DNA of 32,000 nt from Candidatus Thorarchaeota archaeon (GCA_048882505.1 JBHLRO010000010.1:1-32000), one strand, 5' to 3'; shown: positions 12,923 through 32,000, counted from the first letter of the stretch. Notes: generated from the letters alone by a model not told the origin. Program-made: numbers and translations.

Positions 12923-13057
12923 GGGAATTCGGGAAATCAATGATGGAAATCCTCTGGTTACTGGGTTTCGCCGTGTAGGAATCTGTTTCCCGAAAGGTAG
13001 TCATTTTGTTTAATTTTTTAGACCCTTTAATCACAAATAATAAACTTAGGAGTCGGA

Positions 13058-13711: not shown

Positions 13712-13723
13712 GGTGAATTTAAG

Positions 13724-14389: not shown

Positions 14390-14408
14390 GGATTCTAATT
14401 CTGTTAAC

Positions 14409-14416
14409 TTTTTTTT
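14409..14416 (+). terminator. Oligo-T terminator after psmB-psmA
   Basis: T8 run 20 nt after the stop, in a pyrimidine-rich stretch. Confidence 0.45.
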
Positions 14417-14570
14417 CTTATTATTTCTCTTCTAAAACGATTAGTTCTTCTCCGATGGAGGGAACAGAAACTAAAAAATCCTCCTCCGATTGCTTCCAAT
14501 TTACAGTTCTTCTTTGTGTATGGAACATAGTAATTTACAGGCGCTTTAGCACAACAAAAGGCGAACCCAC

Positions 14571-15305: not shown

Positions 15306-15319
15306 GCAGATGAACTTCA

Positions 15320-15802
15320 TCAGAGATAATCAACCTCATTTATCATAGGTCGAATTCTCTCGATTCTTATAGAAGTTCCTATATGTAACTTGTCAAAGAA
15401 GTTCATATGGCCCGAATCGATCCTTCCGACAAGATTAACAGGGTAGGATACCGTTTTTTGCTTAAGAAAAACGATGAGCACTGTACCCTGCGGCCAGTAC
15501 GCCACATCACCGCGCGAGAGCGTCTTATACGCATTCTCAGGTGACACTCGTCCGATTTTAAAGGGAAAAGCCACCTCCCCTTCTCGTACGACAACTCGTG
15601 ATTGAATTGGATTTTTAAGGCGAAAGCGGATTAACGCTACCGTCCGTGGAGCGAATTCCCGTTGAAGCGTGGCTTTACCGATCGTTTCTTGTCCAATAAT
15701 CGTGAATTCCATCATTACTTTCTCTGATGACATTAACCGATTCCTCTGTTCACCATCGAGTATCCAAAATGATTTCAACAATGGATATGAATTATCCGAC
15801 AA
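15320..15802 (-). CDS. Cyclophilin-like fold protein (DUF369/TM1367-like)
   Basis: LQREFAPRTV, EGEVAFP, RGDVAYWPQGTVLIVF, PVNLVGRI. The true start may be internal (ATG 15715). Confidence 0.75.
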   Translation of the reverse strand: MSDNSYPLLKSFWILDGEQRNRLMSSEKVMMEFTIIGQETIGKATLQREFAPRTVALIRFRLKNPIQSRVVVREGEVAFPFKIGRVSPENAYKTLSRGDVAYWPQGTVLIVFLKQKTVSYPVNLVGRIDSGHMNFFDKLHIGTSIRIERIRPMINEVDYL

Positions 15803-16055
15803 GTTTTCGAAATTTTTGCGCCTTTCAGATCGAACTGATCCACTAGAACTACTTCGATTCTCTTCGTTTATTTGATCCGGAAGATTTCTTAAAAATCTTC
15901 TTCCTTTCCAAACCGAAGCTTTCCAGAAGGAACCCTGTAAGGTTCATCATGCTCAAGCCCGTTAGGTTCTTTGAACCGAGACTTTTTAACCACCATTATT
16001 TATTCAATATCTGAAGGGGTATACTCTCCCCTCAATTTATCACCAACATGGAAGA

Positions 16056-16946
16056 ATGACGTTCATGAGTTTAGTAGATTTTTTTGGTCAATTCCTACCA
16101 CCTGGTATATTGGAGGTCTTCGTAATCATCGCTATTATCTTGATTGGGATCTATCTCCTCAGCGGAATCAGGATTGTTAAGGAATGGGAAAGAGCGCCGG
16201 TACTCAGACTGGGCCGCTACACCGGCCTCAAAGGACCGGGAATGTTCTGGATCTTGCCTGGTATAGACAAGATCCCGCAGATCGTATCCACCAGAATTCA
16301 AACCTATAGTTTCAGAAGTGAACAGAGCCTTACTAGAGACAATGTACCTGTGTCTATCGATGCTGTTTTATTTTTTCGGGTTGTAGATGTCGAGAAAACC
16401 ATTTTAGAAGTTGAACATTATGCAGCCGCGACACAATGGATTGCACAAACCACTTTAAGAGAAGTGACTGGACAAGTTGAATTGGATGAACTGCTTGCTG
16501 AGCGCGAAAAGATTGCGGAACATATGCAAGAATTGGTGGATATAAAAACCGAAGAATGGGGGGTTAAAATCATATCGGTCGAGGTACGAGACGTAGTTGT
16601 TCCTGGACGATTACAAGAGGCTATCAGCCGTCAAGCTGAGGCCGAACGAGAACGTCGCGCTCGTATTACACTATCACAGGCTGAAAAGGAAGCAGCAAAA
16701 GGAATGATAGAAGCTGCAGAGCAATATGCCAAATCGCCTCATGCTATGGAACTTAGATGGATCAACCTCTTATTTGAGGCTGCCACTGAAGGAGGGGCGA
16801 CTATTATGCTTGTGCCCACTAATATTCCGATTGCAGGATTCGCAGGTCAAGGAACCCAGGGAATAGGCAGTGGCGGTTTACCACCTGTAGGAGTCTACGG
16901 TATAAAGGAACTGCCAAAAGAAAAGCCGAAAAAGTCAGAAGAGTAG
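16056..16946 (+). CDS. SPFH/band-7 (stomatin/slipin) membrane protein
   Basis: One N-terminal TM, IRIVKEWERAPVLRLGRY, LTRDNVPVSIDAV, AQTTLREVTGQVELDELL, AISRQAEAERERRA. Confidence 0.95.
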   Translation: MTFMSLVDFFGQFLPPGILEVFVIIAIILIGIYLLSGIRIVKEWERAPVLRLGRYTGLKGPGMFWILPGIDKIPQIVSTRIQTYSFRSEQSLTRDNVPVSIDAVLFFRVVDVEKTILEVEHYAAATQWIAQTTLREVTGQVELDELLAEREKIAEHMQELVDIKTEEWGVKIISVEVRDVVVPGRLQEAISRQAEAERERRARITLSQAEKEAAKGMIEAAEQYAKSPHAMELRWINLLFEAATEGGATIMLVPTNIPIAGFAGQGTQGIGSGGLPPVGVYGIKELPKEKPKKSEE

Positions 16947-16998
16947 TTTTTTTCAAATAGATTGGCAAACAAAAACTTGCCAATTCCCCTCCTTTTTT
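16947..16998 (+). terminator. Putative terminator: T7, 8-bp hairpin, T6
   Basis: T7 at 16947-53; ATTGGCAA-N8-TTGCCAAT at 16961-84; T6 at 16993-98. Confidence 0.5.
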
Positions 16999-17114
16999 AT
17001 TTGAATTTCACGAACTTGCCCAGTTTGGGCTATTATTATAAATAAACACATTTCTTCATAATCTCTAGGACTGGCCTGTTCTGCTATTGACTTGATATTG
17101 GGAATGGAAGGACA

Positions 17115-17885
17115 ATGATGTCTCAAGACAGGATAATTAAAGTTCAGGAAATTGCGAATAACTCATGGCAAGCTAAAGAGTTTTACTTGTTGAATGGATG
17201 GGTATTACGATTTAACGAGGGTGCCACAGGAAGGGCAAATTCAGTTCTTCCGCTGAACTATTGGGGGAACGATCTTTTGGGAGACATAAGACTGGTTGAA
17301 CTTGCATATAAGCATCATAACCTTCCTGCCCGATGGCAATTACATGATGGGTTTGTCCCGGAGAGACTATTCGAGGTATTGAAATCGGAAGGATATAAGC
17401 AGGATCCTAGAGTAGATGTAATGGGTACTGATTTGCAAACATTCAACAGATCTGATAGAAGAACAACCCCTTTATTTACGCTCAGCGCAAGCTGCAGGAG
17501 AACGAAAGCGTGGACAAGAGCATTCATTGAATTAACCACCCATCGAGATAGGGATGAATTGGGGAAGATGTGTGAAATTATGGATCGCATCACTATTCCC
17601 CGTAAACAATTTCTGGTTGCCCATGGTGATGATCAAGTGGCAGGTGTGATCTTTGGAGTCGTGGATCGAAGCTTCCTGGGAATTATGGATCTTGTGGTTG
17701 CACCCCATTATCGTAGAAAAGGACTTGCAACCGCTCTGGTTACTAATACGGTAAATTGGGCCTCTCAACACTCGGCCCGTTCGCTTTACCTCCAAGTTCT
17801 GGCCGATAATGATGCTGCCATCGCTCTATATCAAAAACTGGGTCTCAACCGATGGTTCAGCTATTTCTATCTAACCCAAACTTAA
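17115..17885 (+). CDS. GNAT family N-acetyltransferase
   Basis: GWVLRFNEGATGRANSV N-domain; acetyl-CoA motif VAPHYRRKGLAT; LQVLADNDAAIALYQKLG. Confidence 0.9.
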   Translation: MMSQDRIIKVQEIANNSWQAKEFYLLNGWVLRFNEGATGRANSVLPLNYWGNDLLGDIRLVELAYKHHNLPARWQLHDGFVPERLFEVLKSEGYKQDPRVDVMGTDLQTFNRSDRRTTPLFTLSASCRRTKAWTRAFIELTTHRDRDELGKMCEIMDRITIPRKQFLVAHGDDQVAGVIFGVVDRSFLGIMDLVVAPHYRRKGLATALVTNTVNWASQHSARSLYLQVLADNDAAIALYQKLGLNRWFSYFYLTQT

Positions 17886-17913
17886 AATCTCATTGCCTTC
17901 TTAGTAAAAAAAC

Positions 17914-18792
17914 ATGCTTTTAAAAGGCCTTTTTCTAATCAGTCGTCCTCTGAACTCCTTTTTGTCCGGTTTTGCCGTTGTAATTGGTGCAATAGCGGCA
18001 ATTTCTCATCCTCTTACACAAAATCAACTTTGGGGAGTCTTATTAGGTTATCTCACCACATCCTTGGTCGCAGTAGGGGGTTATGCTATGAATGATGTTT
18101 TTGATATCGAAATTGACAAAATAAACATGCCACATCGCCCTTTACCTTCTGGTTACCTAACCTTGAACCAGGCCAAGACCTATGCGGCCATTTTGTTTAT
18201 TATAGGAAATCTATTGGCCTTGATGATTGATGTTCCAGCATTCTTACTTGCTTTTTCTGCAGGGCTCCTGTTATACATGTATGCAGCCTATTTTAAACGA
18301 GCTGGATTCCTTGGGAATATCATGATTGGCATCCTGACCGCTGTCCCATTTATTTTTGGAGGACTTTTAACGGCAAGCTATGAAACAATGATTTTTCCGG
18401 CTCTTTTTGCATTTCTCCTAATAGTTGGTCGAGAAGTGATAAAAGATATAGAAGACGTCCGTGGCGATCGGATGGAGAGCGTTAAATCTGTCGCTCTCAC
18501 GTACGGGGTCGGTACAGCTCGAAACCTTGGATATGCGTTTCTAGTTGTGTTAATGGTGATTAGTCCCCTTCCAATCATTCTTGGATATTATTCTTCTCCC
18601 ATATTCATTGTGATTGTGTTGGGAATTGATGTAGCCATCTTGTTTGTAGGATATCTCCTGTTTAAACGGAACGAGGAAGAAATAGTAAGAAATGCCACGC
18701 GTTGTAAGCGACTACTCAAAACTTGTATCTCTTTCGGGATTTTAGCTTTTGTGATTGAAGGTTTAGGCAAATTACTTCTCCTAAGCGGTTAA
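17914..18792 (+). CDS. UbiA-family prenyltransferase, probable digeranylgeranylglyceryl-phosphate synthase (DGGGPS)
   Basis: NDVFDIEIDKINMPHRPLPSG, YAAYFKR.GFLGN, REVIKDIEDVRGD; multiple TM helices. Confidence 0.85.
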   Translation: MLLKGLFLISRPLNSFLSGFAVVIGAIAAISHPLTQNQLWGVLLGYLTTSLVAVGGYAMNDVFDIEIDKINMPHRPLPSGYLTLNQAKTYAAILFIIGNLLALMIDVPAFLLAFSAGLLLYMYAAYFKRAGFLGNIMIGILTAVPFIFGGLLTASYETMIFPALFAFLLIVGREVIKDIEDVRGDRMESVKSVALTYGVGTARNLGYAFLVVLMVISPLPIILGYYSSPIFIVIVLGIDVAILFVGYLLFKRNEEEIVRNATRCKRLLKTCISFGILAFVIEGLGKLLLLSG

Positions 18793-19023
18793 ACAAGACT
18801 CGAAACGGCCTCTTCTTGTTCCTAGAAGCCCAAATTGGGGAAGATTGAGCTAATTCTATCTGTTCTATTGCTTCAATCCGAGAGCCCAAAACCATTGGCT
18901 TTCCAAATTTTAAAGGAAAATTTATTTTAATCGAAGGCAGTCGGGTTGCCCAAGTAGAAAAAAACTACCTACCAGTACTTACACGTACTGGCGGATATTC
19001 CAAATATTCTGGTGGATTATAAC

Positions 19024-19314
19024 TTGGCGTATACGGATAAAAAAGTGAAAAAGAAACGTCGCTGGGGTAAAATCTTTGAGTATACAAGCTATCAGCGCAC
19101 TTTGCCTGTCGGCAAGGACTACGAAGAAAAGCTTGCACAATTAGAACAGGATTTTGTAAAGCGAAAGAATTTTGTCGTAACTGCCCCCGAAATAGCCACA
19201 CGACTCGATATTCGAGTATCCGTGGCCCAAAACATGTTAGATGACCTGGAAGAAAAGAATATACTAAAAAAAGGTATTTCCTCCAGACGGCTAAAAGCTT
19301 ATGTCAAGGCTTAA
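19024..19314 (+). CDS. rps25e: 30S ribosomal protein eS25
   Basis: KKKRRWGK...VVTAPEIATRLDIRVSVAQNMLDDLEEKNIL...AYVK matches the eS25 winged helix. TTG 19024 follows SD GGTGGA; the ORF track uses GTG 19012. Confidence 0.85.
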   Translation: MAYTDKKVKKKRRWGKIFEYTSYQRTLPVGKDYEEKLAQLEQDFVKRKNFVVTAPEIATRLDIRVSVAQNMLDDLEEKNILKKGISSRRLKAYVKA

Positions 19315-19412
19315 GGGAAAAAGTCAACGGAATATATTCATTTCCCAGCCGAGATGATTGGGGGTGGAGAATGGAAGAAAAGGCTTCCTAGATTCATACG
19401 GAAATAACGGAA

Positions 19413-19988
19413 ATGGAGATTTTAGAAAACCTAATTATGATGAAGAGGCTTCTCAGGCAGGGCTGGTTACGTGCTGGCGTTCCCGTTGGCTCCGTTGAAT
19501 CCCTTGCGGCTCACTCATGGTCAGTAGCTTTTCTTGCTTTACTGTTTTGTATAGAAGAAAACCAGAAACGAAACGAAATCCCACTGAATCTGGAAAAAAC
19601 GGTGTTAATAGGGCTACTTCACGATTTCCATGAATCCGAGTGGTTAGATATGGATAAAAGCGTTTCTAGAATTCTTTCCCCCGAACAGCTTGAAAGAATT
19701 CAACAGGCACTCCATGAAGGGGCTGTCACTGGTATATTGTCGAAACTTCCATCTTCTTTAAGGGGAACCTTAGAAGAAATTCTCCTTGATACTGAAAGCG
19801 AAGAATACCATCTCGCTCGAGTTGCGGATCTTATGGATTTGCTAATTCAGGCAAACGCATATGGTAAGAAGCAGTTTCTTGATCCCGGACAAGTTAGTGA
19901 GTTCAGAAGGTATGCGCGGGAGGAACTGGAACAGTATGAATCGAAATTTGGCTTCTTGAAACCTCTAATCGAAAAATGGGGGATCTGA
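19413..19988 (+). CDS. HD-domain hydrolase (YfbR/HDDC2-like 5'-deoxynucleotidase)
   Basis: LKRxxRQGW-type N-terminus, ESLAAHSW, LLHDFHE, ARVADLMD. Confidence 0.88.
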   Translation: MEILENLIMMKRLLRQGWLRAGVPVGSVESLAAHSWSVAFLALLFCIEENQKRNEIPLNLEKTVLIGLLHDFHESEWLDMDKSVSRILSPEQLERIQQALHEGAVTGILSKLPSSLRGTLEEILLDTESEEYHLARVADLMDLLIQANAYGKKQFLDPGQVSEFRRYAREELEQYESKFGFLKPLIEKWGI

Positions 19989-19998
19989 AGACAACGTA

Positions 19999-21003
19999 TT
20001 AGTTTTCATTAATGAGGGGCAAAACCATTGATTCAATAAATTTGATACTGTTCTCAACGAATTGATCTGAATCAGCTAGCTTAATTCCCAGCTTGAACGC
20101 ATGAGCTTGTTCAAACAAAGGATAGTACTGGGAAAACCCTGAATCGTCACCCCAAATCTCTTGAACGGTTTCATGGATATCTGGCTTTACAAGATCTAAT
20201 TCGACAGCTTTTCTTCCAGCATAATAGCAAGCTAATGCAAAAATTATATCTATGACAGAAGATCCAATTAAAAAGTCCAATTCACCCTCAGGGAGGCCCT
20301 CTTCCTTAGCTGTGGTAATAATTTCGTCCATCTGGACCAAAGTGTCTCGCAAAATCTCTTTGGCCGATACTTTTACTTGTTGGTCGGAGATCTTGATGTT
20401 TTCAAATACGTTTGAACCAATTCTCACTTCCCCAGCTTGGGCATACAATATGTGGATGGGGCCCCAAGCTGCGCCAAACTTGTCAAGTTGAGGAATATCC
20501 TCCTCCTTCAGAATCATTAGATCAAAAATGTGGGCAACCTCGGGAGTCACAATTTCCTCTCCAATTTCATTAACCCGTTGAATTATATCTTCTCCGCTGT
20601 CAGCCGTGAGAACAACGACAAAGTTGATATCGCTCTCTCCAACCACATGGAGTCGCTTTGCATATGATCCATAAATTATAAGGGCTTTAAGATGGTTTTT
20701 AAGGACATTATCGTCTTTAAGCTTTTTAATCACCAGCTCCTCTAGCATTTCATACTCACTCGATTCATCTGCTAAGGAAACTCCTTCTTCAATCGCAAGC
20801 GACTCTATTTCGTCATCCTCCATCGCATTGGCCTTTTCAACCTCCTCTTTAACTATCTTCATGGATCCACGAACCTCAGCTTTCAAATTTGGGTTCTCAA
20901 CTATAACATTCTTCAATACAGCTGTTAAAATCGCTTCTCCTTGTTCCATGCGCGCTTTGGTGGCGTACTGGCGGATAAGAACCCTTAATTCTTCTTCGTC
21001 CAT
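19999..21003 (-). CDS. Fusion protein: archaeal GluRS N-terminal-like domain, Pol-beta-type nucleotidyltransferase, C-terminal helical bundle
   Basis: Residues 1-75 match the archaeal GluRS N-terminal pattern. IIYGSYAK...SDINFVVV...IFDLMIL is the NTase signature. The C-terminus is all-helical. Confidence 0.75.
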   Translation of the reverse strand: MDEEELRVLIRQYATKARMEQGEAILTAVLKNVIVENPNLKAEVRGSMKIVKEEVEKANAMEDDEIESLAIEEGVSLADESSEYEMLEELVIKKLKDDNVLKNHLKALIIYGSYAKRLHVVGESDINFVVVLTADSGEDIIQRVNEIGEEIVTPEVAHIFDLMILKEEDIPQLDKFGAAWGPIHILYAQAGEVRIGSNVFENIKISDQQVKVSAKEILRDTLVQMDEIITTAKEEGLPEGELDFLIGSSVIDIIFALACYYAGRKAVELDLVKPDIHETVQEIWGDDSGFSQYYPLFEQAHAFKLGIKLADSDQFVENSIKFIESMVLPLINEN

Positions 21004-21160
21004 GTCAAATTACCTTCTTCTTTCCCTATGAAAGGTATTGAGCTATCAAGATGTTCGAGGTGAGCAAAAAGATCCGTAGATATGCGGTTTTTCTCGAGTT
21101 TGTAAGTGTGTAGGTGCCTCTAGTAAGAGATCTATGAATTCGGTAATCTTACAAAGAAAT

Positions 21161-22333
21161 TTATAACGTTTGACGTTTAATGAGTTTGTCTATTGAATTA
21201 ACAATTTCCTTTAACTGAATGCTGCTCGGTTCTTCGTCCCTTGACGCATGGTGTATCAATTCAGAAATAATTCGCCCTAATATCTCCATTTCTGGCACTT
21301 TGAATCCTTGTCTTGTAAGCTCAGCCGTTCCAAAACGCATTGCAGAATCAGTCACAAGTTTATACTTAAGAAGCATGTCTCGGTACCTGGCCCCTTGCGT
21401 AAAATCCTCTATTTGCATCAATACTTGGTGAGATTCTGTGAATCCTTTCTCTCTCCCGTGCAATGATATTTCATGTTCGTCTAAGGTTTGAGCCAAGGCT
21501 TTTGCATTTAATGTTGTTTGCATTGCATATTGAACTCCATAATGTTGAAATTCTTCTAAGGCAACCCCTAGTGCAGCTATCCGTGAGTTGTGAACGTTAT
21601 CGACCAAAACAATGCCTTTTAAGGGATCTAATCCAATAACCTCGTTGAGATTATCAAGTGCAAAATCATTTGCAAGAATAACACCCCCTTGGGGGCCAGG
21701 AAAGGATTTGTGAGTCGATCCCAGCAAGAAATCCGCACTTTCTCCTAAAGGATCTTGGAATTGCCCACCAGCTATCAATCCTAGGACATGGGATCCATCA
21801 TAAGCAACAAGGCCACCATATCCATGTACCACATCCGCTATCGGTTTAACTGGGTGCGGAAAGAGAAACAAAGAGGCCCCCAAAAAGACTAGAGGAGGTT
21901 TTTCGACTTCAAGAATCTCAATGGTTCTTGACAGGTCAATATTGTACTCTTTTGGACTCCAAGGGATATTGATGCGCTTTCTTCCAAAAAATTCAAGATT
22001 TATGGGATATCCTCCTGCTGGGTGCAAGGGTAGAATTGCTATCTTGTCTTCTGGATGTGAATGAGCTAACATCACCGCCAAAACTGCCATATTCCCTGAT
22101 AAGGGAGAAATAAGGGCCGATTTACAGTGAAATACTTTTTCAGCCAATTCTTGACTCTGAGCATAGATCTTCTGGAACACATTGGAACCACCGTAAAAAT
22201 CTGAATGGTACCGACTATGTTGGATAGACAAAGCTTTCTTGACCTGGGGGCTAAGAGTGTTCTCTGATGCTATCAGATTGAGACAGTTTGAGCGAAATTT
22301 ATCATTCTTCATGATTAGCTCCATTAACTTCAT
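21161..22333 (-). CDS. glyA: Serine hydroxymethyltransferase-family PLP enzyme, divergent
   Basis: LNLIASEN, FYGG, LSGNMA, YDGSHVLGLIAGG, GSTHKSFPGPQGG, MRFGTAELTRQG. The start is reassigned to ATG 22333 (SD GGAGA); the ORF track uses 22513. Confidence 0.88.
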   Translation of the reverse strand: MKLMELIMKNDKFRSNCLNLIASENTLSPQVKKALSIQHSRYHSDFYGGSNVFQKIYAQSQELAEKVFHCKSALISPLSGNMAVLAVMLAHSHPEDKIAILPLHPAGGYPINLEFFGRKRINIPWSPKEYNIDLSRTIEILEVEKPPLVFLGASLFLFPHPVKPIADVVHGYGGLVAYDGSHVLGLIAGGQFQDPLGESADFLLGSTHKSFPGPQGGVILANDFALDNLNEVIGLDPLKGIVLVDNVHNSRIAALGVALEEFQHYGVQYAMQTTLNAKALAQTLDEHEISLHGREKGFTESHQVLMQIEDFTQGARYRDMLLKYKLVTDSAMRFGTAELTRQGFKVPEMEILGRIISELIHHASRDEEPSSIQLKEIVNSIDKLIKRQTL

Positions 22334-22520
22334 CGCAAGGTCTCCATTTGTAAAATCACGAACTAAAGATTTAACAATTCTTATTAATTGGAACAGAGAT
22401 AGGATAGGATAAGCATTTTGGGGTGTTTCAGTCTGAAGATTTTTCTGAGATACGAAACTCACTTCACTCAATTTACTAGTACCAAGAAAAAACGAACGGT
22501 GACTGTTCATCAATTTTGAA

Positions 22521-23273
22521 GTGAACGATTTGATTGATGCACACGCCCATTTGCTTCCTGATTTTGTGGATAACGTCGAAGAACTTGTCCAAAGCGCCAG
22601 AGCCGCCGGTCTTCAAGCCATTATCAATTCTGCGATAGAACCTGATCATTATTTTTATGCGAATAATTTGGCCCGCGAACATAGTGGATTCGTATATTCA
22701 ACGTTGGGATTTTCTCCCTCACACATCAAATCGATCGATTTTGATGTTGCATACAGTCATATCAAGAATAATAGCTCACTTGTAGCAATTGGGGAAGTCG
22801 GTCTGGACTATTATTGGATTAAAGATGTTTATTGGCAAAATAAGGAACAGATCGTTTTCCAGAGGTTTATTGAACTTGCGAATGAACTGCAAAAACCCCT
22901 CGTTATTCATAGTAGGAAGGCTGAGACTGACTGCATTGATCTCTTGGAAAAACACGCAGGGGTTCCTGTTTTAATGCACTGCTTTTCAGGTACAATAGAT
23001 GATGTTAAAAGATGCTTAGATTCAGGATGGTTACTTTCAATACCAACTGCCGTTGTTAATCGGAAAAAACATCGCAGGATTGCTCGAAAGGTCCCTCTGG
23101 AATCTCTTGTGGTTGAAACCGATACTCCCTTTCTGAGCCCCATAAAGGGTGAACGTAACCAACCCGCAAATATCCGATATGCCATACAAGAAGTCGCAAA
23201 ATTGAAGGATTCTACCTTTGATGACGTAAGAAGACATACCACAAAAAATGCCAAAGAGTTTTATCGGTTATAA
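22521..23273 (+). CDS. tatD: TatD-family metal-dependent hydrolase/DNase
   Basis: DAHAHL, IGEVGLDY, IHSR, MHCFSG, VETDTPFL. Confidence 0.94.
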   Translation: MNDLIDAHAHLLPDFVDNVEELVQSARAAGLQAIINSAIEPDHYFYANNLAREHSGFVYSTLGFSPSHIKSIDFDVAYSHIKNNSSLVAIGEVGLDYYWIKDVYWQNKEQIVFQRFIELANELQKPLVIHSRKAETDCIDLLEKHAGVPVLMHCFSGTIDDVKRCLDSGWLLSIPTAVVNRKKHRRIARKVPLESLVVETDTPFLSPIKGERNQPANIRYAIQEVAKLKDSTFDDVRRHTTKNAKEFYRL

Positions 23274-23307
23274 CAATAGACTCGGAATCTACTGGATCGT
23301 GCTCTTT

Positions 23308-24954
23308 ATGGGTCATACCAGGCAAGAAGGCGTACTTCATTACCGAGAGGAAACGATTTCGAACCTTCAATCGCAGGAGTTCGATATTCTGGTAGTGGGA
23401 GGCGGAATCACTGGAGCTGGAGTTGCTAGGGATGCAGCACTCCGAGGGTACTCTGTCGCATTGGTTGAAAAGTTAGATTTTGGATCAGGCGCAAGTAGCG
23501 GGTCATCAAAGCTTGTACATGCAGGACTCAGATACGTACCGCAAAAAGAGTTTCGATTAGTAAGGGAAGCATCAAGAGAACGTAGAAAAATACTAGAAAT
23601 GGCACCACACGTTACATCTCCAGTAAAGTTCTTTTTTCCTTTTCATTCAGACCTTTGGTCAACTCGACGGAAAATCAAGCTTGGCATTTGGTTTTATGAT
23701 ATTTTGGCCGGGTTTAGAAACCACATGTTCCATAAATTCTTGGGGATTGACAAGGCACTAAAATTGATTCCAACCATTCGAGAACAAGAATTTCAAGGAG
23801 CAGGCATCTATGGTGACGGACGGATGGACGATTCTCGTCTGTCTTTAGAGATCATTTTATCAGCGCAAGATCATGGGGCCTCTGTTCTCAACTATTGCGA
23901 GGTAATTTCGTTTAAAACCAATCAGTCTGGAGATAAGATTACTAGCGTCAATGTACATGATAAAATCAAGGATCAAAAGTTTGCCATAAAATCAAGAGCG
24001 GTAGTTATCGCATGTGGACCTTGGACCGATGAAATTTTACAGATGCTTGATCCTAATGCCCCTCCACGGGTTCGCATCACTAAAGGTATCCATTTAATTA
24101 CAAAGAAATTCTATGATGGAGAATATGCGGTCGTTGTTCCAATTCGTGATAAACGTGTCAACTTCGTGATCCCTTTTGGAGATTTCAATCTGGTAGGAAC
24201 GACCGATACTGATTACACGGGTGATTTGGATTTCGTCCCAGTTTTGGAAGATGAAATCGACTATATCATTGACGCCATCAATTTCATTTTTCCTGGGAGC
24301 TTATCTAGAAAGGACATAGTCAGTGCCTATTCGGGATTGAGGCCCCTTATTATTTCTCCAGATGCCAAATCTGAGTCAGATGTATCACGAAAACATGGAA
24401 TTTTTGTTCCTCGATCAAATCTCTTTGCGATTACTGGAGGCAAATTCACTACATTTCGCGCAATGGCGAAAGATGTTGTGGACCGTTTAGGGGATTTTTT
24501 GGGGAAAAAAGCGAGATGCATGACGGATGAAACACCTCTCCATGGCTGGAGCTCACTCAGCCGCCGTTACTGGGAAAACTGGAAAATTATTGCTATCGAA
24601 GACATGAAAATCCGATATGAACTTCCCCAAGACATCGCCATACATTTACTGCGCTATGGAGAGAATTACAAACAAATTTGTCAATTTATAAAGGAAAATC
24701 CAGAGCTAGCTGATCGAATCTCCAGTGATCGCTCCTATATCCTTGTGGAAGTGGATTATGCAGTTATGTACGAAAAAGCGGTCACACTAAATGATTTCAT
24801 GCTTCGGAGAACACAACTACAGCTATCAGATAATCAGGGTTTGGACTGTATTGAACCAATTGTAGATCGGATGGCCGATTTATTAGGTTGGCCAGCTGAC
24901 GAAAAAGAAAGGGAAAAAGCTAGCTATAAAGAATCGCTGGTTTGGAGTCCGTGA
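23308..24954 (+). CDS. glpD: FAD-dependent glycerol-3-phosphate dehydrogenase/oxidase
   Basis: DILVVGGGITGAGVARDAALRG, SSGSSKLVHAGLRY, GDGRMDDSRL, TKGIHL, GTTDT, SAYSGLRPL, GGKFTTFRAMA. Likely start ATG 23308; the ORF track uses 23248. Confidence 0.93.
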   Translation: MGHTRQEGVLHYREETISNLQSQEFDILVVGGGITGAGVARDAALRGYSVALVEKLDFGSGASSGSSKLVHAGLRYVPQKEFRLVREASRERRKILEMAPHVTSPVKFFFPFHSDLWSTRRKIKLGIWFYDILAGFRNHMFHKFLGIDKALKLIPTIREQEFQGAGIYGDGRMDDSRLSLEIILSAQDHGASVLNYCEVISFKTNQSGDKITSVNVHDKIKDQKFAIKSRAVVIACGPWTDEILQMLDPNAPPRVRITKGIHLITKKFYDGEYAVVVPIRDKRVNFVIPFGDFNLVGTTDTDYTGDLDFVPVLEDEIDYIIDAINFIFPGSLSRKDIVSAYSGLRPLIISPDAKSESDVSRKHGIFVPRSNLFAITGGKFTTFRAMAKDVVDRLGDFLGKKARCMTDETPLHGWSSLSRRYWENWKIIAIEDMKIRYELPQDIAIHLLRYGENYKQICQFIKENPELADRISSDRSYILVEVDYAVMYEKAVTLNDFMLRRTQLQLSDNQGLDCIEPIVDRMADLLGWPADEKEREKASYKESLVWSP

Positions 24955-26615
24955 ACCTTTTGATTCCGATTCAATCCAAAGATCCCTGGATTCAAAATCC
25001 CCTCCGGATCAAGACTTTGTTTCAAATCCTTGAGCAACCCCATTCCAGCAGAACCAATTTCCTCTTGTAACCATGCACTAAATGATCTGCCGATCCCATG
25101 GTGGTGACTCAGTGTTCCTCCGTTTGCTAGAAATGTATCCAAAACCTTCTTTCGTATGCGATGGAACTGGTCAATCTCATTTCCTTCTTCCTGCGGGGCT
25201 AAGACAGTAAAATACAGATTTGCTCCATTAACGTAGAAATGGCTTCCATGGGTCCAAATCATGGGACATTCAGAACTAAGTACTTCCAGGACCGCATGAT
25301 ATAAAGGGAGTAGTTTTTCCCAAGTTACCGCGGTTTCAAAGGTTTCCAATAAAACTCCATGATCAATAATTGAATCTCTAAGAAAGGGAGTATCAAATCG
25401 AGAATTATACCATTGCTCTCCGGGAGATGCTCCTAAATGGTATCCGTGATGTTTTTTTGCCAGGGAAATCGCATGCTTTCGTGTCATTGACACTAGGTTT
25501 GATTGCCCCTCAATAACCATTATCCCGAGGCATCTTTTGCCTTCTGAAAATCCACGGCTCGTAAGATATTTCATCCCAATCTGTTGAAAATAAGAGGGTT
25601 CCCGCGGGGGATCGTGCATAAGAGAGCTGGCCCTTAAATTAAAATAGGTCTCTGATGCATCAGACAGTCGGAGAATTGCCGGACGAAATCCAGCCTGTAT
25701 GAGCTCTCTGTAAGCATTAATTCCATCTTCAAATGACCGAAAGAAGAATGCTGAAAACTTCCTGGCCTGTGGAATTGGCCAAACTCGCAGTGTCGCTTCG
25801 GTTATAATTCCAAAGACCCCCTCCGAGCCTGAAAATATATGCGTAAAATCTGGACCAGTTGAACGAGCTGGAACAGTCTTAATTTCTAGTGTGGTTCCCT
25901 TTCCTGTCGCAACTTTCAATCCCATTAGCATATCTTCTATCTTACCATACAAAGTGGAATTTTGACCAGCTCCACGGGTTGCAATCCATCCACCTAAGCA
26001 GCTATATTCGAAAGATTGCGGAAAATGGCCCAAGGTCAATCCATTTGAATTAAGATTATCTTCCAAAAAAGGTCCTAAAACACCTGTTTGGGCTGTAACA
26101 TACATACTGGTTTGGTTGATAGCCAGAATACGGGCCATCCGAGTTATGTTGAGTACCGTACAGCCTTTGGAAATCTGTGAAACTCCATGAGTCACACTGG
26201 TTCCACCTCCTCTGACACAAAGAGGAATCCCAAAAGCTTTGGCCGCCTGGATAACTGAAACAATCTCATCATGTGAATGGGGATATATTACCAGTTCAGC
26301 GATCGGTGGTAATTTGGCTATTCGAGTCTGTATGAGTTCAAGGTATCCTTGGCCTAACGAATTTTCGATACGTTCCCAGAAATCTGATGAGATCTGAGTA
26401 GAATGCAAAAATAAACCAATATTATCCAAGAACTCTTTGGGAAGATCAGGAGGTTGTTCATGTATTGTTTCAGGACTTTTTGATAAATAGGTTTTCTTCG
26501 GAGTACCCTGATCAATGCCTAGTTGAGAATAAACCAGCTCCTTAAAGGCAGAAGTCCATTTCACCTTGGTAGAATCTCTGTCACCCCATTTGGTAGCAGT
26601 TGGGAGAGGCTTCAT
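24924..26615 (-). CDS. Alkyl-dihydroxyacetonephosphate synthase-like FAD-linked oxidoreductase
   Basis: GGGTSV, LGHFPQSFEYSCLGGWIATRGAGQNSTLYGKIED, PAILRLSD, GANLYFT, TLSHHHGIG. Overlaps glpD by 31 nt, convergent. Confidence 0.87.
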   Translation of the reverse strand: MKPLPTATKWGDRDSTKVKWTSAFKELVYSQLGIDQGTPKKTYLSKSPETIHEQPPDLPKEFLDNIGLFLHSTQISSDFWERIENSLGQGYLELIQTRIAKLPPIAELVIYPHSHDEIVSVIQAAKAFGIPLCVRGGGTSVTHGVSQISKGCTVLNITRMARILAINQTSMYVTAQTGVLGPFLEDNLNSNGLTLGHFPQSFEYSCLGGWIATRGAGQNSTLYGKIEDMLMGLKVATGKGTTLEIKTVPARSTGPDFTHIFSGSEGVFGIITEATLRVWPIPQARKFSAFFFRSFEDGINAYRELIQAGFRPAILRLSDASETYFNLRASSLMHDPPREPSYFQQIGMKYLTSRGFSEGKRCLGIMVIEGQSNLVSMTRKHAISLAKKHHGYHLGASPGEQWYNSRFDTPFLRDSIIDHGVLLETFETAVTWEKLLPLYHAVLEVLSSECPMIWTHGSHFYVNGANLYFTVLAPQEEGNEIDQFHRIRKKVLDTFLANGGTLSHHHGIGRSFSAWLQEEIGSAGMGLLKDLKQSLDPEGILNPGIFGLNRNQKVHGLQTSDSL

Positions 26616-26714
26616 ATCTAAAACCTCGTTGGTTCATTGAAAACAGAGGCAGATCTATTCTATAAAAGGAACTAGTATCATATCTATTGAGGTTTCCCTA
26701 AAAAACAATCAGAT

Positions 26715-27356
26715 TCAGAGAATTTTGTCTTCATTTTGGGTTTGAAACTCATTTTGAGCGTACATTATCGTCACCCAGATAGCCTCCCTCGGGGTTAACG
26801 GTTTTCCTTCTTGCGCTTCCAGGTTCAAATTTTCTACCAAAATATTGTGCTTCCTCACTTCTTCAAAATAATGCTCTCCCATTTCCTGGATGGTCATCTT
26901 GGAAAATGGCGAACCCTGCCCGATTCCAGGACAGGTTTTTGTTGCATTCTTAGCCCATACTGCAGTAAGTGTCTTTGTGCCTTTTATTTTTCGAAATGCG
27001 AAAGGGTAATTCCGGCAAGCCAGTGGCCTGTATGGGTAGATGCTACAGTTGGGCTTAATATAAAAAACACAATCACCCACGGAATCCTTACGGAGGCCCG
27101 GAATTATTTGGCCTTTTGTAACTTGGATAGGACGTAAGACCAAACGTTCGCGTATTTTTTCGTCCGAAACGTCTTTTAAGGTGTAAAAGGTGATTCTCTT
27201 AAGCAAGGAATGAAAATCCTGCTCCATAGCTGCATATAGAAGATACAAGTCTCGATATGTGAGAGTTACAATCAGTTTTGGATCCCTACAACAATTTCCA
27301 CTCTGTTGGCAAGTAAATATTCGTTCTTGACCCAAGGTAACCCATTCAGGGGTCAA
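26715..27356 (-). CDS. YkgJ/UPF0153-type cysteine-cluster protein
   Basis: CQQSGNCC, CVFY...CSIYPYRPLACRNYPF, CPGIG. Confidence 0.88.
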   Translation of the reverse strand: MTPEWVTLGQERIFTCQQSGNCCRDPKLIVTLTYRDLYLLYAAMEQDFHSLLKRITFYTLKDVSDEKIRERLVLRPIQVTKGQIIPGLRKDSVGDCVFYIKPNCSIYPYRPLACRNYPFAFRKIKGTKTLTAVWAKNATKTCPGIGQGSPFSKMTIQEMGEHYFEEVRKHNILVENLNLEAQEGKPLTPREAIWVTIMYAQNEFQTQNEDKIL

Positions 27357-27535
27357 TACAGTTCGCCTTCCACAGGAATCACTAGGTTACACGTCTCACA
27401 CAAATATCGATAGTTTCGTTCTTCCGTCAGAGTATCAAAATAGGTTTCTTTCGTAAAAGGTTGGTTGCAGATCCCGCAGCGCTCCCGTGTTTTTTGAACT
27501 CCTATTAATACCCCAGGTGGAGGCGGATTTTCCAT
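27353..27535 (-). CDS. Small CxxC...CxxC zinc-finger protein
   Basis: CGICNQPF...YLCETC; 4-nt overlap with the downstream TTG start. Confidence 0.6.
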   Translation of the reverse strand: MENPPPPGVLIGVQKTRERCGICNQPFTKETYFDTLTEERNYRYLCETCNLVIPVEGELY

Positions 27536-27723
27536 TTGAAATGACCACGGAATACAATATTCTCTGGTGTTATCTTGAGGTCTTCTTTAGTTATCCTGAA
27601 CGATTTACAATTGAAGCGATGACCCCACCCTCCCAGCTTTTGCAAGAGATCAATTTTCACGCGTCCTTGCGTATCTAAAACACAGATTTAGTAATCTTTT
27701 AGAAAAAAAGTTGATTTGAAAAT

Positions 27724-27930
27724 CTAATAATCTTCTTCTTGTTGCCTTTTCAGTTTTATCTGATGGGTTAAATAACCCGCAACGCGATTTCTAAATCGCT
27801 TTGAACGTGTTTTTGCAACCTTCGAGACAATGTCCTTATTGTGGTCAAAGTCCAACGTGAGGTGCGCCTCGTATTCCTTCATAATCTGGCGAGTGATTAT
27901 CTTGACAGCGCTCGTTCGAACTTTTCCCGT
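27724..27930 (-). CDS. rps17e: 30S ribosomal protein eS17, apparent ACG start (not in ORF track)
   Basis: Hand translation gives (M)GKVRTSAVKIITRQIMKEYEAHLTLDFDHNKDIVSKVAKTRSKRFRNRVAGYLTHQIKLKRQQEEDY*, with the eS17 motifs GKVRT, DFxxNK and SKRxRNRxAGYxT. Confidence 0.93.
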   Translation of the reverse strand, partial: TGKVRTSAVKIITRQIMKEYEAHLTLDFDHNKDIVSKVAKTRSKRFRNRVAGYLTHQIKLKRQQEEDY

Positions 27931-28034
27931 TGTTATAACACTCCATTTATTTCAAAGTGTAAGGAGTAGACGGTTCATTGGTGTTTACTCCCAGCTAGAA
28001 GACCCATTCTCTTATTTTTTAAATATACCACCCG

Positions 28035-28346
28035 CTAAGGCGGAAGGTTATGCGGATCAATGATAAGATTGAACTTTTCCGTAAAAGACTCATGATGGAC
28101 AGATAATTCCACCTCGGTTTTCGTCTCTGGAATTCGGACAACCCAGTTAACAAGAAACTCATTCCCGTCCCCAAGGTCGGGAAGAGCAATCACACTTTCT
28201 TGATTGGGGGCGAATTCCAAATCACCATGAATCCGAAATTCTAAATCTTTTAATGGAGCAAACTCCAATGGTTGTCTGATTACCCATACGACGATCAATC
28301 GATTATCAAAAAATCTTTCCAAGGTCGGTGGTGAAAATCGAGGCAC
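28035..28346 (-). CDS. Small uncharacterised beta-rich (Ig-like?) protein
   Basis: GTG start 7 nt after the upstream stop, with GAGG upstream. Alternating hydrophobic strands, LPDLGDGNEFLVNWVVR. Confidence 0.55.
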   Translation of the reverse strand: MPRFSPPTLERFFDNRLIVVWVIRQPLEFAPLKDLEFRIHGDLEFAPNQESVIALPDLGDGNEFLVNWVVRIPETKTEVELSVHHESFTEKFNLIIDPHNLPP

Positions 28347-28353
28347 GATAGGT

Positions 28354-29019
28354 CTATCCTCGGGTAAAGCTTGGAAAGAAAAGTGTGCCCTCCCGAGAAT
28401 TTATGATACATATCTTGTTTTGAGCCAGAAGTTCGATCAAATAATCGACCTTCGAGGTATCCCAGGGAACACGTTGGTATATTTCGTTTATTAAGATTTC
28501 ACCATAGGTGCTGATTCCCTCGTTTATCCACGCCAAAAAAGTATGGACATCTCTTGATAAGGTGAGCGGTTCGAATAAGAATCCCTGCTTAGATTTTCCG
28601 ATGATTCCCTGCTCATTCAGCATTTCAAGAGCAGCCTCTATGTCTTGGATATCCACCTCCCATCCAGGGTGATGTTTATGAAATGAAGATGTCAATCTAC
28701 TTAGACGAACGGGTTCCAGATTGACTCGTTGGTGGGCTAGCCCGTACGGGATTATTTCGGATGCTAAACGGTGGAAAAACTGTTCTCGTCCTAAAAAACG
28801 AGGCGTTTTGAACATTGATGCAGGCAATACAGAAACAGGGAGACCTACCTCACGTTTTAAGGTAAGTAGATAATTTCTCATATCATCTGGAAGATTCACT
28901 GGAATTTTGTTGGAATTTGCGCCCTCCCTCAACTTTTTCTCCGCATAGCGAATGCTCTCATCTTTCTGCTCTTTTAATTTTTTCCCTAATGCCTTAAAAC
29001 GGTCCCGGACGTCGTTCAT
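28354..29019 (-). CDS. ESCRT-II Vps22/Vps36-like (EAP30) protein
   Basis: N-terminal helix, then FFHRLASEII, VDIQDIEAALEML, PLTLSRD, GEILINEI..VPWD..KVDYLIELL..FFPSF. This follows the tandem winged-helix pattern of Vps22. Confidence 0.75.
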   Translation of the reverse strand: MNDVRDRFKALGKKLKEQKDESIRYAEKKLREGANSNKIPVNLPDDMRNYLLTLKREVGLPVSVLPASMFKTPRFLGREQFFHRLASEIIPYGLAHQRVNLEPVRLSRLTSSFHKHHPGWEVDIQDIEAALEMLNEQGIIGKSKQGFLFEPLTLSRDVHTFLAWINEGISTYGEILINEIYQRVPWDTSKVDYLIELLAQNKICIINSREGTLFFPSFTRG

Positions 29020-29140
29020 TGCAGGATTGCCTCATTGGCTTTGAGAGGGTCATTTCCATCCTCCATTAAAAACCAAATGGTTCTGGACTGTCATGCCTTC
29101 TTAGATAGGGAGAAACTACGTTTTAAGGGCCAGAGTATCT

Positions 29141-29479
29141 CTATTTTGTGAGATCTCCTCCGTGTTTCCGTCCCGCATGCTTTAGTAGGTATTCGATAGG
29201 GATATCTTGAAAACGCCCATCTGGGAGAGTTCGACGAACCAATATAGGGAGAAGACGTTGCCTAATCTCACGTTCTGCTATTAGTAACGGGTCCCCTTCT
29301 TCCTGCTTCACTTCCTCTGGCTCTGGGTTTACCTGTTCTTCGCTTACCTCAAAGGTAACGGGTGCGCCCATGGATATCTGTAATGCCCTGGCCCCTAATA
29401 TACGGGCATACTCAAAACGGGTGAGCATGCGTGGTCCAATCTTAATCTCCATTGAATTCCTGGTAACTGCCAGAGACAT
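29141..29479 (-). CDS. rpo6: DNA-directed RNA polymerase subunit Rpo6 (RpoK/RPB6)
   Basis: [44 protein letters not shown]. Confidence 0.96.
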
Positions 29480-29619
29480 CAGCCCTACGACTTTTCTTCA
29501 TGAAAAAAAGAGCAAGAACGCCAAATTAGGCGCTGATATAAGATAGTTATTACGATTTTGTCGTTGATCTTTTGAGGTGACAAAAATCCCTGCTCATTTA
29601 ATTCCATGACAAGAATAAT

Positions 29620-29650
29620 AAAGAAAAAAGAAAGAAAAAAAGAGAAAAAG
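29620..29650 (-). terminator. Oligo-T-rich terminator of the thermosome genes
   Basis: Minus strand reads CTTTTTCTCTTTTTTTCTTTCTTTTTTCTTT starting ~17 nt after the stop. Confidence 0.6.
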
Positions 29651-29666
29651 ACTGAAGAGGAGTCAA

Positions 29667-31292
29667 CTAATCGAGATCGTCATCCATGCCGCCGTCGGGA
29701 CCGCCGGGACCTCCTGCAGGTCCGGCCGATGACTTGGCAGAGATGATATCGTCTATTCGTAGAACCATCTGAGCGTTTTCACTGGCCGCAGTTATGGCAT
29801 GGGTTTTGACACGGAGGGGCTCTACCACATCAGTCATGTTCCGAACCTTTCCCTTAAATACATCCACACCTGCTTTGTGGTTTCCACCTTCATGCTCAGC
29901 GCGGAGCGCAACAATGATGTCGATTGGATCCAGGCCAGCATTCTCTGCGAGAGTTCTGGGGATTATCTCTAGGGCGTCCGCAAAGGCCTGAACGGCTAAT
30001 TGTTCACGACCCACAAGTGATTCTGCAAATTTGTGCAGTTTTCGGCTTACATAAGCTTCGGGCGAACCTCCGCCTGTTACGATCTTTCGATCCTCTAATG
30101 CATTCCGCACAACGCAGATTGCGTCATGGATGGATCTTTCAGCTTCGTCTACAACGAGTTCAGTACCGCCACGGACCAAAATTGTCACAGCTTTGGCTTC
30201 AGGACAATCTTCTACGAAAACCATGTCGTCATCACCGACACTAGTCTCATATACTTTTCCTGCGGTTCCAAGATCATCGGCTGAGAGGTCCTTGATACTA
30301 TTAACAATTTTAGCGCCAGTTGCCTTACCAAGTTTTTCCATATCGGACTTTTTAACCCGTCGTACAGCCATGATCCCTTTTTTGGCCAGAAGATGTTGAG
30401 CAATGTCATCGATTCCCTTCTGGGCGAGTACTACTTGAGCACCCGATTCGTCAACCTTATCTACCATTTTTGCCAGCATGCCAGCTTCGCGGTCGAGAAA
30501 CTCTTGGATTTTTTCTGGATCTGTGATAGAGAGTTCTGAATCAAACTCAGTTTTTGATACCTCAAATGCTTCGGCAATTAGAGCGATTTTTGGATTTGTT
30601 AGGCTCTTGGGCATTCCTGCATGGACAACTTCTTTGTCTAACACAATTCCCTTGACCAACAGCGTAGATTCAAGATCTTCCCCTTCTTTTTTCTCCACTT
30701 TTATGTTTTCTATATCAATTTTGCCTGTTCCTTCGTCTACACTTTTCACTGCGTCTATAACCAACTTACCTAACATACCACTAGATCGAGACACTATTTT
30801 TGATCCCATGGTGGTTGTCACGATTTTGGAAAGTGAAGCATTGTCCTCTGGGGATATTTCCGTGGCAATCTCATTAAGAAGTTCTACTGCTTTCTCTGTG
30901 GCTAAACGATAACCTTCCACCAAGATCGTAGGATGGATTTTATCGCTTGTGATTAGATCGGAAGCTTTTTGGAGCAATTCGCCTGCAAGAATTACTACGG
31001 TTGTCGTTCCATCCCCAGCTTCTTGATCCTGCATTTTAGAAAGCTCAACCATCATTTTTCCGATCGGATGTGCTATATCGATCTCTTTCAGAATCGTAGC
31101 TCCATCGTTGGTTATTACCACGTCTCCGAAGTTGTCTAAAAGCATTTTGTCCATGCCTTTAGGCCCCAAGGCTGATCTGATTGCCTCAGAGATAATACGT
31201 GCGGCTGCAATATTGCTAGTGAGCGCGTCTCGTCCAGTAGTCCGAGAAGTATCTTCTTTTAGTATTAATACTGGTGTACCTTGAAAAGACAT
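29667..31292 (-). CDS. Thermosome subunit (group II chaperonin), acidic C-tail
   Basis: LGPKGMDKML, ITNDGATIL, GDGTTT, GGGSPE, LAENAGLDP, LRIDDII. Confidence 0.98.
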   Translation of the reverse strand: MSFQGTPVLILKEDTSRTTGRDALTSNIAAARIISEAIRSALGPKGMDKMLLDNFGDVVITNDGATILKEIDIAHPIGKMMVELSKMQDQEAGDGTTTVVILAGELLQKASDLITSDKIHPTILVEGYRLATEKAVELLNEIATEISPEDNASLSKIVTTTMGSKIVSRSSGMLGKLVIDAVKSVDEGTGKIDIENIKVEKKEGEDLESTLLVKGIVLDKEVVHAGMPKSLTNPKIALIAEAFEVSKTEFDSELSITDPEKIQEFLDREAGMLAKMVDKVDESGAQVVLAQKGIDDIAQHLLAKKGIMAVRRVKKSDMEKLGKATGAKIVNSIKDLSADDLGTAGKVYETSVGDDDMVFVEDCPEAKAVTILVRGGTELVVDEAERSIHDAICVVRNALEDRKIVTGGGSPEAYVSRKLHKFAESLVGREQLAVQAFADALEIIPRTLAENAGLDPIDIIVALRAEHEGGNHKAGVDVFKGKVRNMTDVVEPLRVKTHAITAASENAQMVLRIDDIISAKSSAGPAGGPGGPDGGMDDDLD

Positions 31293-31306
31293 TTTTGTTC
31301 CTCCGT

Positions 31307-32000
31307 CTACATCATTGGTGGCATGCCACCCATGCCACCCATACCGCCCATTCCGCCTGGGGGCATTCCTCCAGGGCCACCTGGGGGGCCTTCCATACTT
31401 TTACTCTGAATCACATCGTCAATTCGTAGTATTAGCTCTGCCGCTTCTCGGGCCGAGAATAGAGCTTGTCTCTTTACTCTTAGTGGTTCAATGATTCCCG
31501 CAGTATAGGCGTCCACATTCTTTCCTGTTTGCACATCGATTCCAGTATTCTTTTCACCTTTTTCATGAGCTGCTCGCAACTCAACTAGGACATCGATTGG
31601 ATCAAGACCTGCGTTTTCCGCAAGGGTACGGGGAATAATCTCAAGGGCGTCTGCAAATGCATCTACTGCCATCTGCTCACGGCCTTTGACCGATCCTGCA
31701 AACTCTTTCAGTCCGCGATACAATTCAACCTCAGGAGCGCCTGCGCCTGCTACGGCCCAGCCATCTTCAAGACAATCTCTTACTACACACAGAGCATCAT
31801 GGAGAGCGCGATCAGCTTCGTCAGTGACGTACTTTGTTCCTCCGCGGATCATAATCGAGACAGATTTGGGATTGGGACAATCACGTACGTATATGAGCTT
31901 ATCATCGCCAATCTGAACTTCTTCTATAAGTCCAGCAGATCCGAGATCATTAGCTGACAAGTCCTTAAGGTTTGTGACGATTCTTCCACCTGTTGCTTTG
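31307..32000 (-). CDS. Thermosome subunit, 5'-partial, GGM-repeat C-tail
   Basis: The frame is open to the window edge (KATGGRIVTNLKDLSANDLG), with AGAGAPE, LAENAGLDP, LRIDDVI and PPGGMGGMGGMGGMPPMM. Confidence 0.97.
   Translation of the reverse strand, partial: KATGGRIVTNLKDLSANDLGSAGLIEEVQIGDDKLIYVRDCPNPKSVSIMIRGGTKYVTDEADRALHDALCVVRDCLEDGWAVAGAGAPEVELYRGLKEFAGSVKGREQMAVDAFADALEIIPRTLAENAGLDPIDVLVELRAAHEKGEKNTGIDVQTGKNVDAYTAGIIEPLRVKRQALFSAREAAELILRIDDVIQSKSMEGPPGGPGGMPPGGMGGMGGMGGMPPMM

Follow-up and report, generated by a model that had tools for sequence, protein, structure and literature searches.

Alkyl-dihydroxyacetone-phosphate synthase (AGPS or ADPS, EC 2.5.1.26), of which the enzymes of Dictyostelium (structure 2uuu), guinea pig (4bby) and Myxococcus (MXAN_1676) are examples, is a close relative of a flavoenzyme that is encoded tail-to-tail with a GlpD-type glycerol-3-phosphate (G3P) dehydrogenase in a 32,000-nucleotide stretch of archaeal DNA (GCA_048882505.1, JBHLRO010000010.1:1-32000). 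That whole stretch is called the window hereafter. The window protein shares with AGPS the three-domain fold, the Arg/Arg/Tyr/HHH residues and the length class, but it falls in another clade and is partnered by GlpD in place of an acyltransferase or reductase. Parallels for the gene pair itself come from bacteria. In Mycobacterium tuberculosis we take glpD1 (Rv2249c), the gene of the AGPS-like flavoprotein Rv2251 and that of the diacylglycerol kinase Rv2252 to lie together, a bacterial gene set that includes a lipid kinase and is the one seen in the "GlpD + DAGK" metagenome loci described below. These M. tuberculosis genes are merely mentioned in PMC4564863. The Pseudomonas aeruginosa operon PA3026-PA3023 encodes an FAD-binding oxidoreductase (PA3026), a GlpD homologue (PA3025), an FGGY kinase (PA3024) and a YegS-type lipid kinase (PA3023); its induction under GliR (PA3027) exceeds 40-fold and is shared by a phospholipase C, and the authors of the study read it as glycerolipid metabolism (PMC8151288). 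In a 2026 study of plasmalogen origin the AGPS tree was uninformative and the pathway was stated to be unreported in Archaea (PMC13012113), and our literature search found no papers on AGPS homologues in Asgard archaea.

From sequence comparisons, the window pair is the copy, in the Asgard family Hodarchaeaceae, of a widespread and uncharacterised prokaryotic "GlpD + AGPS-like" module, of which PA3026-PA3023 is a published example. The pair is real, conserved and under selection, and it is neither the eukaryote-type AGPS pathway nor tied to the DGGGPS-like gene found in the same window. The P. aeruginosa operon resembles it in that an AGPS-like oxidoreductase adjoins a GlpD homologue, and the same gene sets recur in metagenome loci; the likeness of PA3026 is one of gene set, its sequence not being among those in our trees. 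The operon differs in adding the FGGY and YegS/DAGK kinases, in being co-directional and in having an AraC activator, whereas the Hodarchaeaceae locus is without these and its two genes mostly converge.

The window, contig C10, comes from an archaeal genome of 4.3 Mb (94.5% complete) that carries proteasome, thermosome and archaeal leucyl-tRNA synthetase genes and belongs to the Hodarchaeaceae. The closest homologues (50-56% identity) bear the names Hodarchaeales, Heimdallarchaeota or Promethearchaeota, and a 91%-identical relative is 'Candidatus Heimdallarchaeota archaeon TM2S.58'.

The AGPS-like flavoenzyme and its GlpD neighbour

The pair occupies the following positions in the window:

23248-24954, plus strand: GlpD-type FAD-dependent glycerol-3-phosphate dehydrogenase (568 aa; Pfam DAO and DAO_C)
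24924-26615, minus strand: AGPS-like flavoenzyme, long form with N-terminal domain, of the GlpD-coupled branch (563 aa; FAD_binding_4 and FAD-oxidase_C)
24924-24954, both strands: overlap of the convergent 3' ends of the GlpD and AGPS-like genes (31 bp)

The AGPS-like protein matches the FAD-binding family PF01565 (1e-35) and the cap family PF02913 (6e-35), and among solved structures it comes closest to 2uuu (Dictyostelium AGPS, E 1e-88), followed by 4bby (guinea-pig AGPS, 5e-74), the alignment reaching into the N-terminal domain, where it starts at residue 48 against the former and at residue 24 against the latter. Three residues of the Dictyostelium enzyme that are important by mutagenesis, R352, R447 and Y508 (PMC3509576), align with window R316 (in PAILRLSD), R413 (in FLRD) and Y468 (in GANLYF), respectively, while window H504-506 corresponds to the HHH loop of AGPS. 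All of them are invariant across the ten Hodarchaeaceae sequences compared, although the Arg/Tyr/HHH residues alone are not diagnostic, being present in short Asgard paralogues too. The AlphaFold model of the protein has a mean pLDDT of 86, and in Foldseek it reaches TM scores of 0.80-0.85 to 2uuu, 4bby and 5adz over 540-590 columns, against 0.71 to D-lactate dehydrogenase. An identity as GlcD or D-lactate dehydrogenase was rejected on two grounds: the match to D-lactate dehydrogenase (3e-31) is confined to residues 107-319, the FAD domain, and the GlcD equivalog model scores 165 bits with a cut-off of 568. By these comparisons the protein is a member of the AGPS family and not a lactate or glycolate oxidase.

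For the GlpD gene, the true start is probably Met21 at 23308, since homologues begin aligning at residues 19-31. The protein matches solved GlpD and GlpO structures with E values from 3e-82 (PDB 3da1) to 7e-61 (E. coli GlpD, 2qcu), and the substrate and catalytic motifs GLRY, KGIH, GTTDT.Y.GD, YSGLRPL and GGKFTTFR of E. coli GlpD are matched in the alignment. With the NCBIfam GlpD equivalog it scores 356 bits (cut-off 360). No second copy was found in the host genome, in which the window GlpD is the sole G3P dehydrogenase.

The overlap was read directly from the two stop codons, TGA at 24952-24954 for GlpD and the complement of CTA at 24924-24926 for the AGPS-like gene. It amounts to about 25 bp in the 91% relative, and of the relatives at 50-58% at least one (L025) lacks it. 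Compared with the 91%-identical relative, the AGPS-like gene has a dN/dS of 0.13 and GlpD one of 0.11, which places both under purifying selection. An earlier note on this DNA, made from the sequence alone, had pointed to the retained catalytic Arg, Tyr and HHH of AGPS and to the tail-to-tail overlap; both observations hold, with R413 added here as a second Arg. It had also named grouping with sugar-phosphate or lactate-type oxidases among the outcomes that would speak against its reading, and as regards the lactate type the weaker match to D-lactate dehydrogenase goes the other way. Membership of the AGPS family, as claimed there, is borne out by fold and residues, but equivalence to eukaryotic AGPS finds no support in the trees.

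Phylogenetic position and distribution

The comparison with eukaryotic AGPS and bacterial homologues that the earlier note had proposed was made by quick maximum-likelihood searches under LG+G4, which gave three trees with 98, 157 and 84 rows (support by the Shimodaira-Hasegawa-like approximate likelihood ratio test, SH-aLRT); their root rests on short Asgard forms, and many of their rows deviate in composition. Eukaryotic AGPS sequences were gathered with segments of 76-77 aa, that of Dictyostelium bringing in Amoebozoa and bacteria and that of guinea pig almost only vertebrates; Myxococcus MXAN_1676, Pseudomonas, Discoba and ciliate sequences are not represented. The three trees agree in placing metazoan and amoebozoan AGPS in a single clade (SH-aLRT 99-100), here called clade E, which also takes in every one of the five loci whose immediate upstream neighbour is a PF01553 acyltransferase gene, the fusion protein P0428, Ignavibacteria and Opitutaceae. 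All of the GlpD-linked genes and GlpD fusions are outside clade E, and so, in all three trees, is the Hodarchaeaceae clade that holds the window gene (support 100). Together with other Asgard long forms and a GlpD + FGGY clade (support 100) it forms part of a basal polytomy, and no supported bacterial sister of the Asgard long forms was found in the trees. Forcing Hodarchaeaceae and eukaryotes together cost 275 log-likelihood units (dlnL) and gave p-AU of 1e-40 in the approximately unbiased (AU) test, by which Hodarchaeaceae were rejected as donor or sister of eukaryotic AGPS.

Five positions split the groups: the window protein has S140 and V141 for the Asn and Ile of clade E, Q200 for an Asp that is invariant there (100%), Q218 for Met and T425 for Val, and its residues at these positions match those of 88-100% of the long forms outside clade E, a GlpD-linked signature. 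Since the groups were taken from the tree, this signature characterises the split without testing it independently. Raw identity has no power to separate the clades, given that the window protein and one clade E bacterial protein are both about 31% identical to guinea-pig AGPS in the aligned region. Taken at the level of sequence and phylogeny, the window gene is separate from the acyltransferase-coupled, eukaryote-type AGPS clade, and on the rooting used the eukaryote-type enzymes would be nested in a much larger GlpD-coupled family.

In a scan of 400 Asgard genomes for AGPS-like and GlpD homologues, the strongest AGPS-like matches came from 20 of the 21 genomes of the window's family, both genomes of a sister family of the same order and two of the 31 genomes of another family of the class. 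Elsewhere in the phylum the matches are mostly open frames of about 470-495 aa, four of which were translated (L049-L052) and are all of the short form; one long form of 562 aa occurs in a distant Asgard family (G122). GlpD itself is far commoner than the long AGPS-like form, being present in 202 of the 400 genomes.

The short paralogues (470-495 aa; L049-L052, L055:15861-17282 and about 30 of the 400 Asgard genomes) belong to the same superfamily as the window protein, which is a long form; they serve as outgroup in the trees. They keep the equivalents of Arg352 and Tyr508 and an HHH or HQH, and lack the N-terminal domain and the equivalent of Arg447. In one genome (G014) a long and a short form are encoded 5 kb apart.

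GlpD coupling and the conserved gene order

Within the Hodarchaeaceae, the pair is adjacent in about 17 of the 20 loci from the phylum scan. Judged by gene neighbourhoods, the GlpD link of the AGPS-like enzyme holds on evidence from outside the family, and rearrangements within it are also informative. In three Hodarchaeaceae genomes, represented by L058 (G067), L061 (G076) and L026 (G075), the AGPS-like gene alone is inverted while the rest of the order is kept, and the inverted genes stay next to GlpD and become co-directional with it. In a genome of another family of the same class (G015), an AGPS-like gene is followed by GlpD in the same direction. In the distant Asgard genome G122, DUF362, GlpD, AGPS-like and FGGY kinase genes form an operon with a divergent LysR-type regulator (L056:1321-8856); the AGPS-like gene of this operon falls among bacterial GlpD + FGGY loci in the tree, a grouping that suggests a separate acquisition.

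The same association was seen among 80 metagenome loci with long-form homologues, the neighbours of which were identified by tblastn with probes. In about 47 of these a GlpD/GlpA-type gene lies no more than 3.5 kb away, mostly next to the homologue and in the same direction, and among the GlpD-linked loci a DAGK-type lipid kinase occurs in about 17 and an FGGY kinase in about 15, several of the latter with a GlpB-like gene. GntR/FadR, MerR, short-chain dehydrogenase/reductase (SDR) and acyl-CoA synthetase genes are recurring neighbours. Public metagenome proteins also include natural fusions of the two enzymes in both orders, AGPS-GlpD and GlpD-AGPS (1100-1127 aa), and, falling in clade E, an 801-aa fusion of a PF01553 acyltransferase with AGPS (P0428). 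The earlier note had pointed to bacterial counterparts of the pair and to a plausible catabolic role for them, which agrees with these loci and with the P. aeruginosa operon.

The fusion proteins as a group are P0369, P0370, P0387, P0405, P0525, P0428 and P0408, P0369 being an AGPS-GlpD fusion; a NUDIX + AGPS-like fusion was also seen among the metagenome proteins.

Two further genes of the window have to be considered for their nearness to the pair:

26715-27356, minus strand: YkgJ-like CxxCxxCC protein (putative Zn/Fe-S; Pfam PF03692)
17914-18792, plus strand: UbiA-family prenyltransferase, DGGGP-synthase-like (PF01040, 2e-40); context only, outside the module

The YkgJ-like gene runs in the same direction as the AGPS-like gene, 99 nt upstream of it, and the two are neighbours in about 15 Hodarchaeaceae loci; it is unmoved where the AGPS-like gene is inverted. 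It was found in none of the 80 metagenome loci, for which reason YkgJ was rejected as a general partner of AGPS-like enzymes. The DGGGPS-like gene lies 4.5 kb upstream of the pair, with unrelated genes on both strands in between, and its top NCBIfam models are of the DGGGPS type, with scores of 212.6 and 193.9 bits that fall short of the curated cut-offs of 269 and 296.

Gene order was compared in 14 Asgard regions. About eight Hodarchaeaceae regions keep the order thermosome, rpo6, Vps22-like, eS17, YkgJ, AGPS-like, GlpD, TatD, serine hydroxymethyltransferase-like, nucleotidyltransferase fusion and HD hydrolase, and in four, the window included, the block reaches the UbiA/DGGGPS gene. Because this is a family-wide synteny of housekeeping genes, the nearness of the DGGGPS-like and YkgJ genes is uninformative on function, and a functional tie to the DGGGPS-like gene was rejected. 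The earlier note was right about the position of a DGGGPS-like gene some 4.5 kb upstream, but the functional link that it drew does not survive.

Across the region as a whole (window 13000-32000, L057-L063), about 20 mostly housekeeping genes stand in fixed order though their proteins are only 50-58% identical.

Possible roles of the pair

Among the roles that could fit these data, we favour salvage or remodelling over eukaryote-type de novo ether-lipid synthesis, and we hold with moderate confidence that the pair may salvage, break down or remodel the backbones of glycerolipids at the level of dihydroxyacetone-phosphate (DHAP), a role that possibly includes oxygen-independent cleavage or exchange of alkyl ethers. 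GlpD would oxidise a G3P head group, either free or already bearing a chain at sn-1, to the ketone level of DHAP. The AGPS-like enzyme would then hold the phosphate with Arg316, Arg413 and the HHH loop, enolise the substrate by means of Tyr468, form a covalent adduct between C1 and the flavin N5 and exchange or remove the O-linked substituent at C1, the outcome being DHAP and electrons fed into central metabolism. That GlpD and AGPS are fused, though they are not consecutive in the textbook route, suggests one of three options: the GlpD-type enzyme may take 1-acyl- or 1-alkyl-G3P, the AGPS-like enzyme may take free DHAP, or the pair may strip sn-1 substituents off lipid backbones.

We favour salvage or remodelling because GlpD is catabolic and is the only G3P dehydrogenase of the host genome, because the partner kinases (FGGY and DAGK-type) and regulators (GntR/FadR and LysR) found elsewhere look catabolic, because the Pseudomonas operon is co-induced with a phospholipase, and because biosynthetic partners are linked only to the other, eukaryote-holding clade. 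GlpK-like kinase, FGGY and DAGK_cat genes are present elsewhere in the host genome.

Several points weigh against this reading. Adjacency inside the Hodarchaeaceae could be inherited synteny, and both genes are present but unlinked in three genomes of the family. Because the genes converge in most of these genomes, the pair is not one transcript, and no kinase or regulator was found at the Hodarchaeaceae locus, in the window or in the compared regions. The GlpD active-site motifs look canonical, with no sign of a lipid-bearing G3P as substrate. There is no assayed enzyme from the GlpD-coupled branch, and deletion of PA3026-PA3023 was without phenotype in a study that contains no enzymology (PMC8151288). 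Finally, PF01553 acyltransferases occur in all 22 Hodarchaeaceae genomes examined for them and a thioester-reductase-like SDR is present in the host genome, which together make a biosynthetic route conceivable.

That route would make the window protein a true alkyl-DHAP synthase in a pathway that builds ether lipids de novo, and its host an archaeon with two ether-lipid chemistries: GlpD would yield DHAP, a PF01553 acyltransferase would convert it to acyl-DHAP, the acyl group would be swapped for a fatty alcohol, and reduction would give a G3P-type ether lipid. We regard this, the main reading of the earlier note, as unlikely, although it can draw on the AGPS catalytic residues, N-terminal domain and fold, all of which are present. 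It can also draw on the acyltransferases just mentioned, of which one 244-aa PF01553 copy gives, within the host genome, the best match to those acyltransferases that stand upstream of true AGPS genes, on PlsY, found in 11 of the 22 family genomes, and on the SDR, which could make the fatty alcohol. Set against this, the protein lies outside the clade of characterised, acyltransferase-coupled AGPS, and the AU test rejects its union with the eukaryotes. No acyltransferase or fatty acyl reductase gene was found at the locus in any of the 14 Asgard regions, the candidates lying elsewhere in the genome only, and the host genome has no PEDS1 and no clear fatty acyl-CoA reductase with the C-terminal domain of that family (FAR). 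Moreover, glycolytic DHAP needs no GlpD, and the nearness of the DGGGPS-like gene reflects generic synteny. The search of the genome for lipid genes that the earlier note had proposed was productive as to PF01553 acyltransferases and glycerol-1-phosphate (G1P) dehydrogenase-like genes, and came out negative for a clear fatty acyl reductase.

The host genome has the following lipid genes, bacterial-type ones beside archaeal ones, and no convincing GpsA was found in it:

C17:14028-14606: PlsY
C13:19778-20866, C3:102528-103439 and C1:362986-363720: three PlsC-type acyltransferases
C2:174518-175618 and C11:110792-111901: two G1P-dehydrogenase-like genes

A role outside of lipid metabolism, which we consider rather improbable, would have the AGPS-like enzyme act on a soluble DHAP-level or polyol-phosphate substrate, or serve as a redox partner or dehydrogenase passing electrons on, for instance to the YkgJ-type protein. 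The neighbours of many homologues are indeed not lipid enzymes but FGGY sugar-type kinases and GlpA/GlpB-like subunits, in other systems GlpD relatives that have an FGGY kinase as partner serve the breakdown of polyols (for example EryA/EryB in Brucella erythritol metabolism), and YkgJ is conserved upstream in the Hodarchaeaceae. However, the residues that have been kept are those of covalent, non-redox AGPS catalysis, the similarity to lactate and glycolate dehydrogenases is far weaker and restricted to the FAD domain, and another large branch pairs with DAGK-type lipid kinases. As for YkgJ, its absence from the 80 non-Asgard loci and its fixed place where the AGPS-like gene is inverted argue against it as the partner.

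There is, lastly, only a slim chance that the two genes are not functionally coupled here, with GlpD an ordinary glycerol-catabolic enzyme beside which the AGPS-like gene lies in a frozen order, since the syntenic region, the separate promoters implied by convergent genes, the distribution of GlpD well beyond the few families with a long AGPS-like form and the three family genomes with the genes apart are outweighed by the pairing seen in other Asgard lineages and in many bacteria, where the gene arrangement is unrelated, by fusions in both orders and by inverted AGPS-like genes that stayed beside GlpD and became co-directional with it.

It is conceivable, if doubtful, that in the Hodarchaeaceae the pair makes or exchanges alkyl ethers, non-isoprenoid or perhaps even isoprenoid, with DHAP as the backbone. 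DHAP being achiral, reduction of the product could lead to glycerol phosphate of either stereochemistry. If this were true, these archaea would have mixed or convertible membrane lipids and an oxygen-independent enzyme of ether-bond exchange, and the same chemistry would hold for the whole GlpD-coupled family in bacteria. Few archaea are more closely related to eukaryotes than the Hodarchaeaceae, and the Hodarchaeales are central to the question of how the archaeal ancestor of eukaryotes acquired bacterial-type membranes; an AGPS-family enzyme is a stable and selected part of Hodarchaeaceae genomes (20 of 21), and it is not the source of eukaryotic AGPS. Establishing the function of one GlpD-coupled member would assign a function to thousands of genes, and would also reveal whether glycerol ether bonds can be formed or cleaved without oxygen in prokaryotes, these archaea among them.

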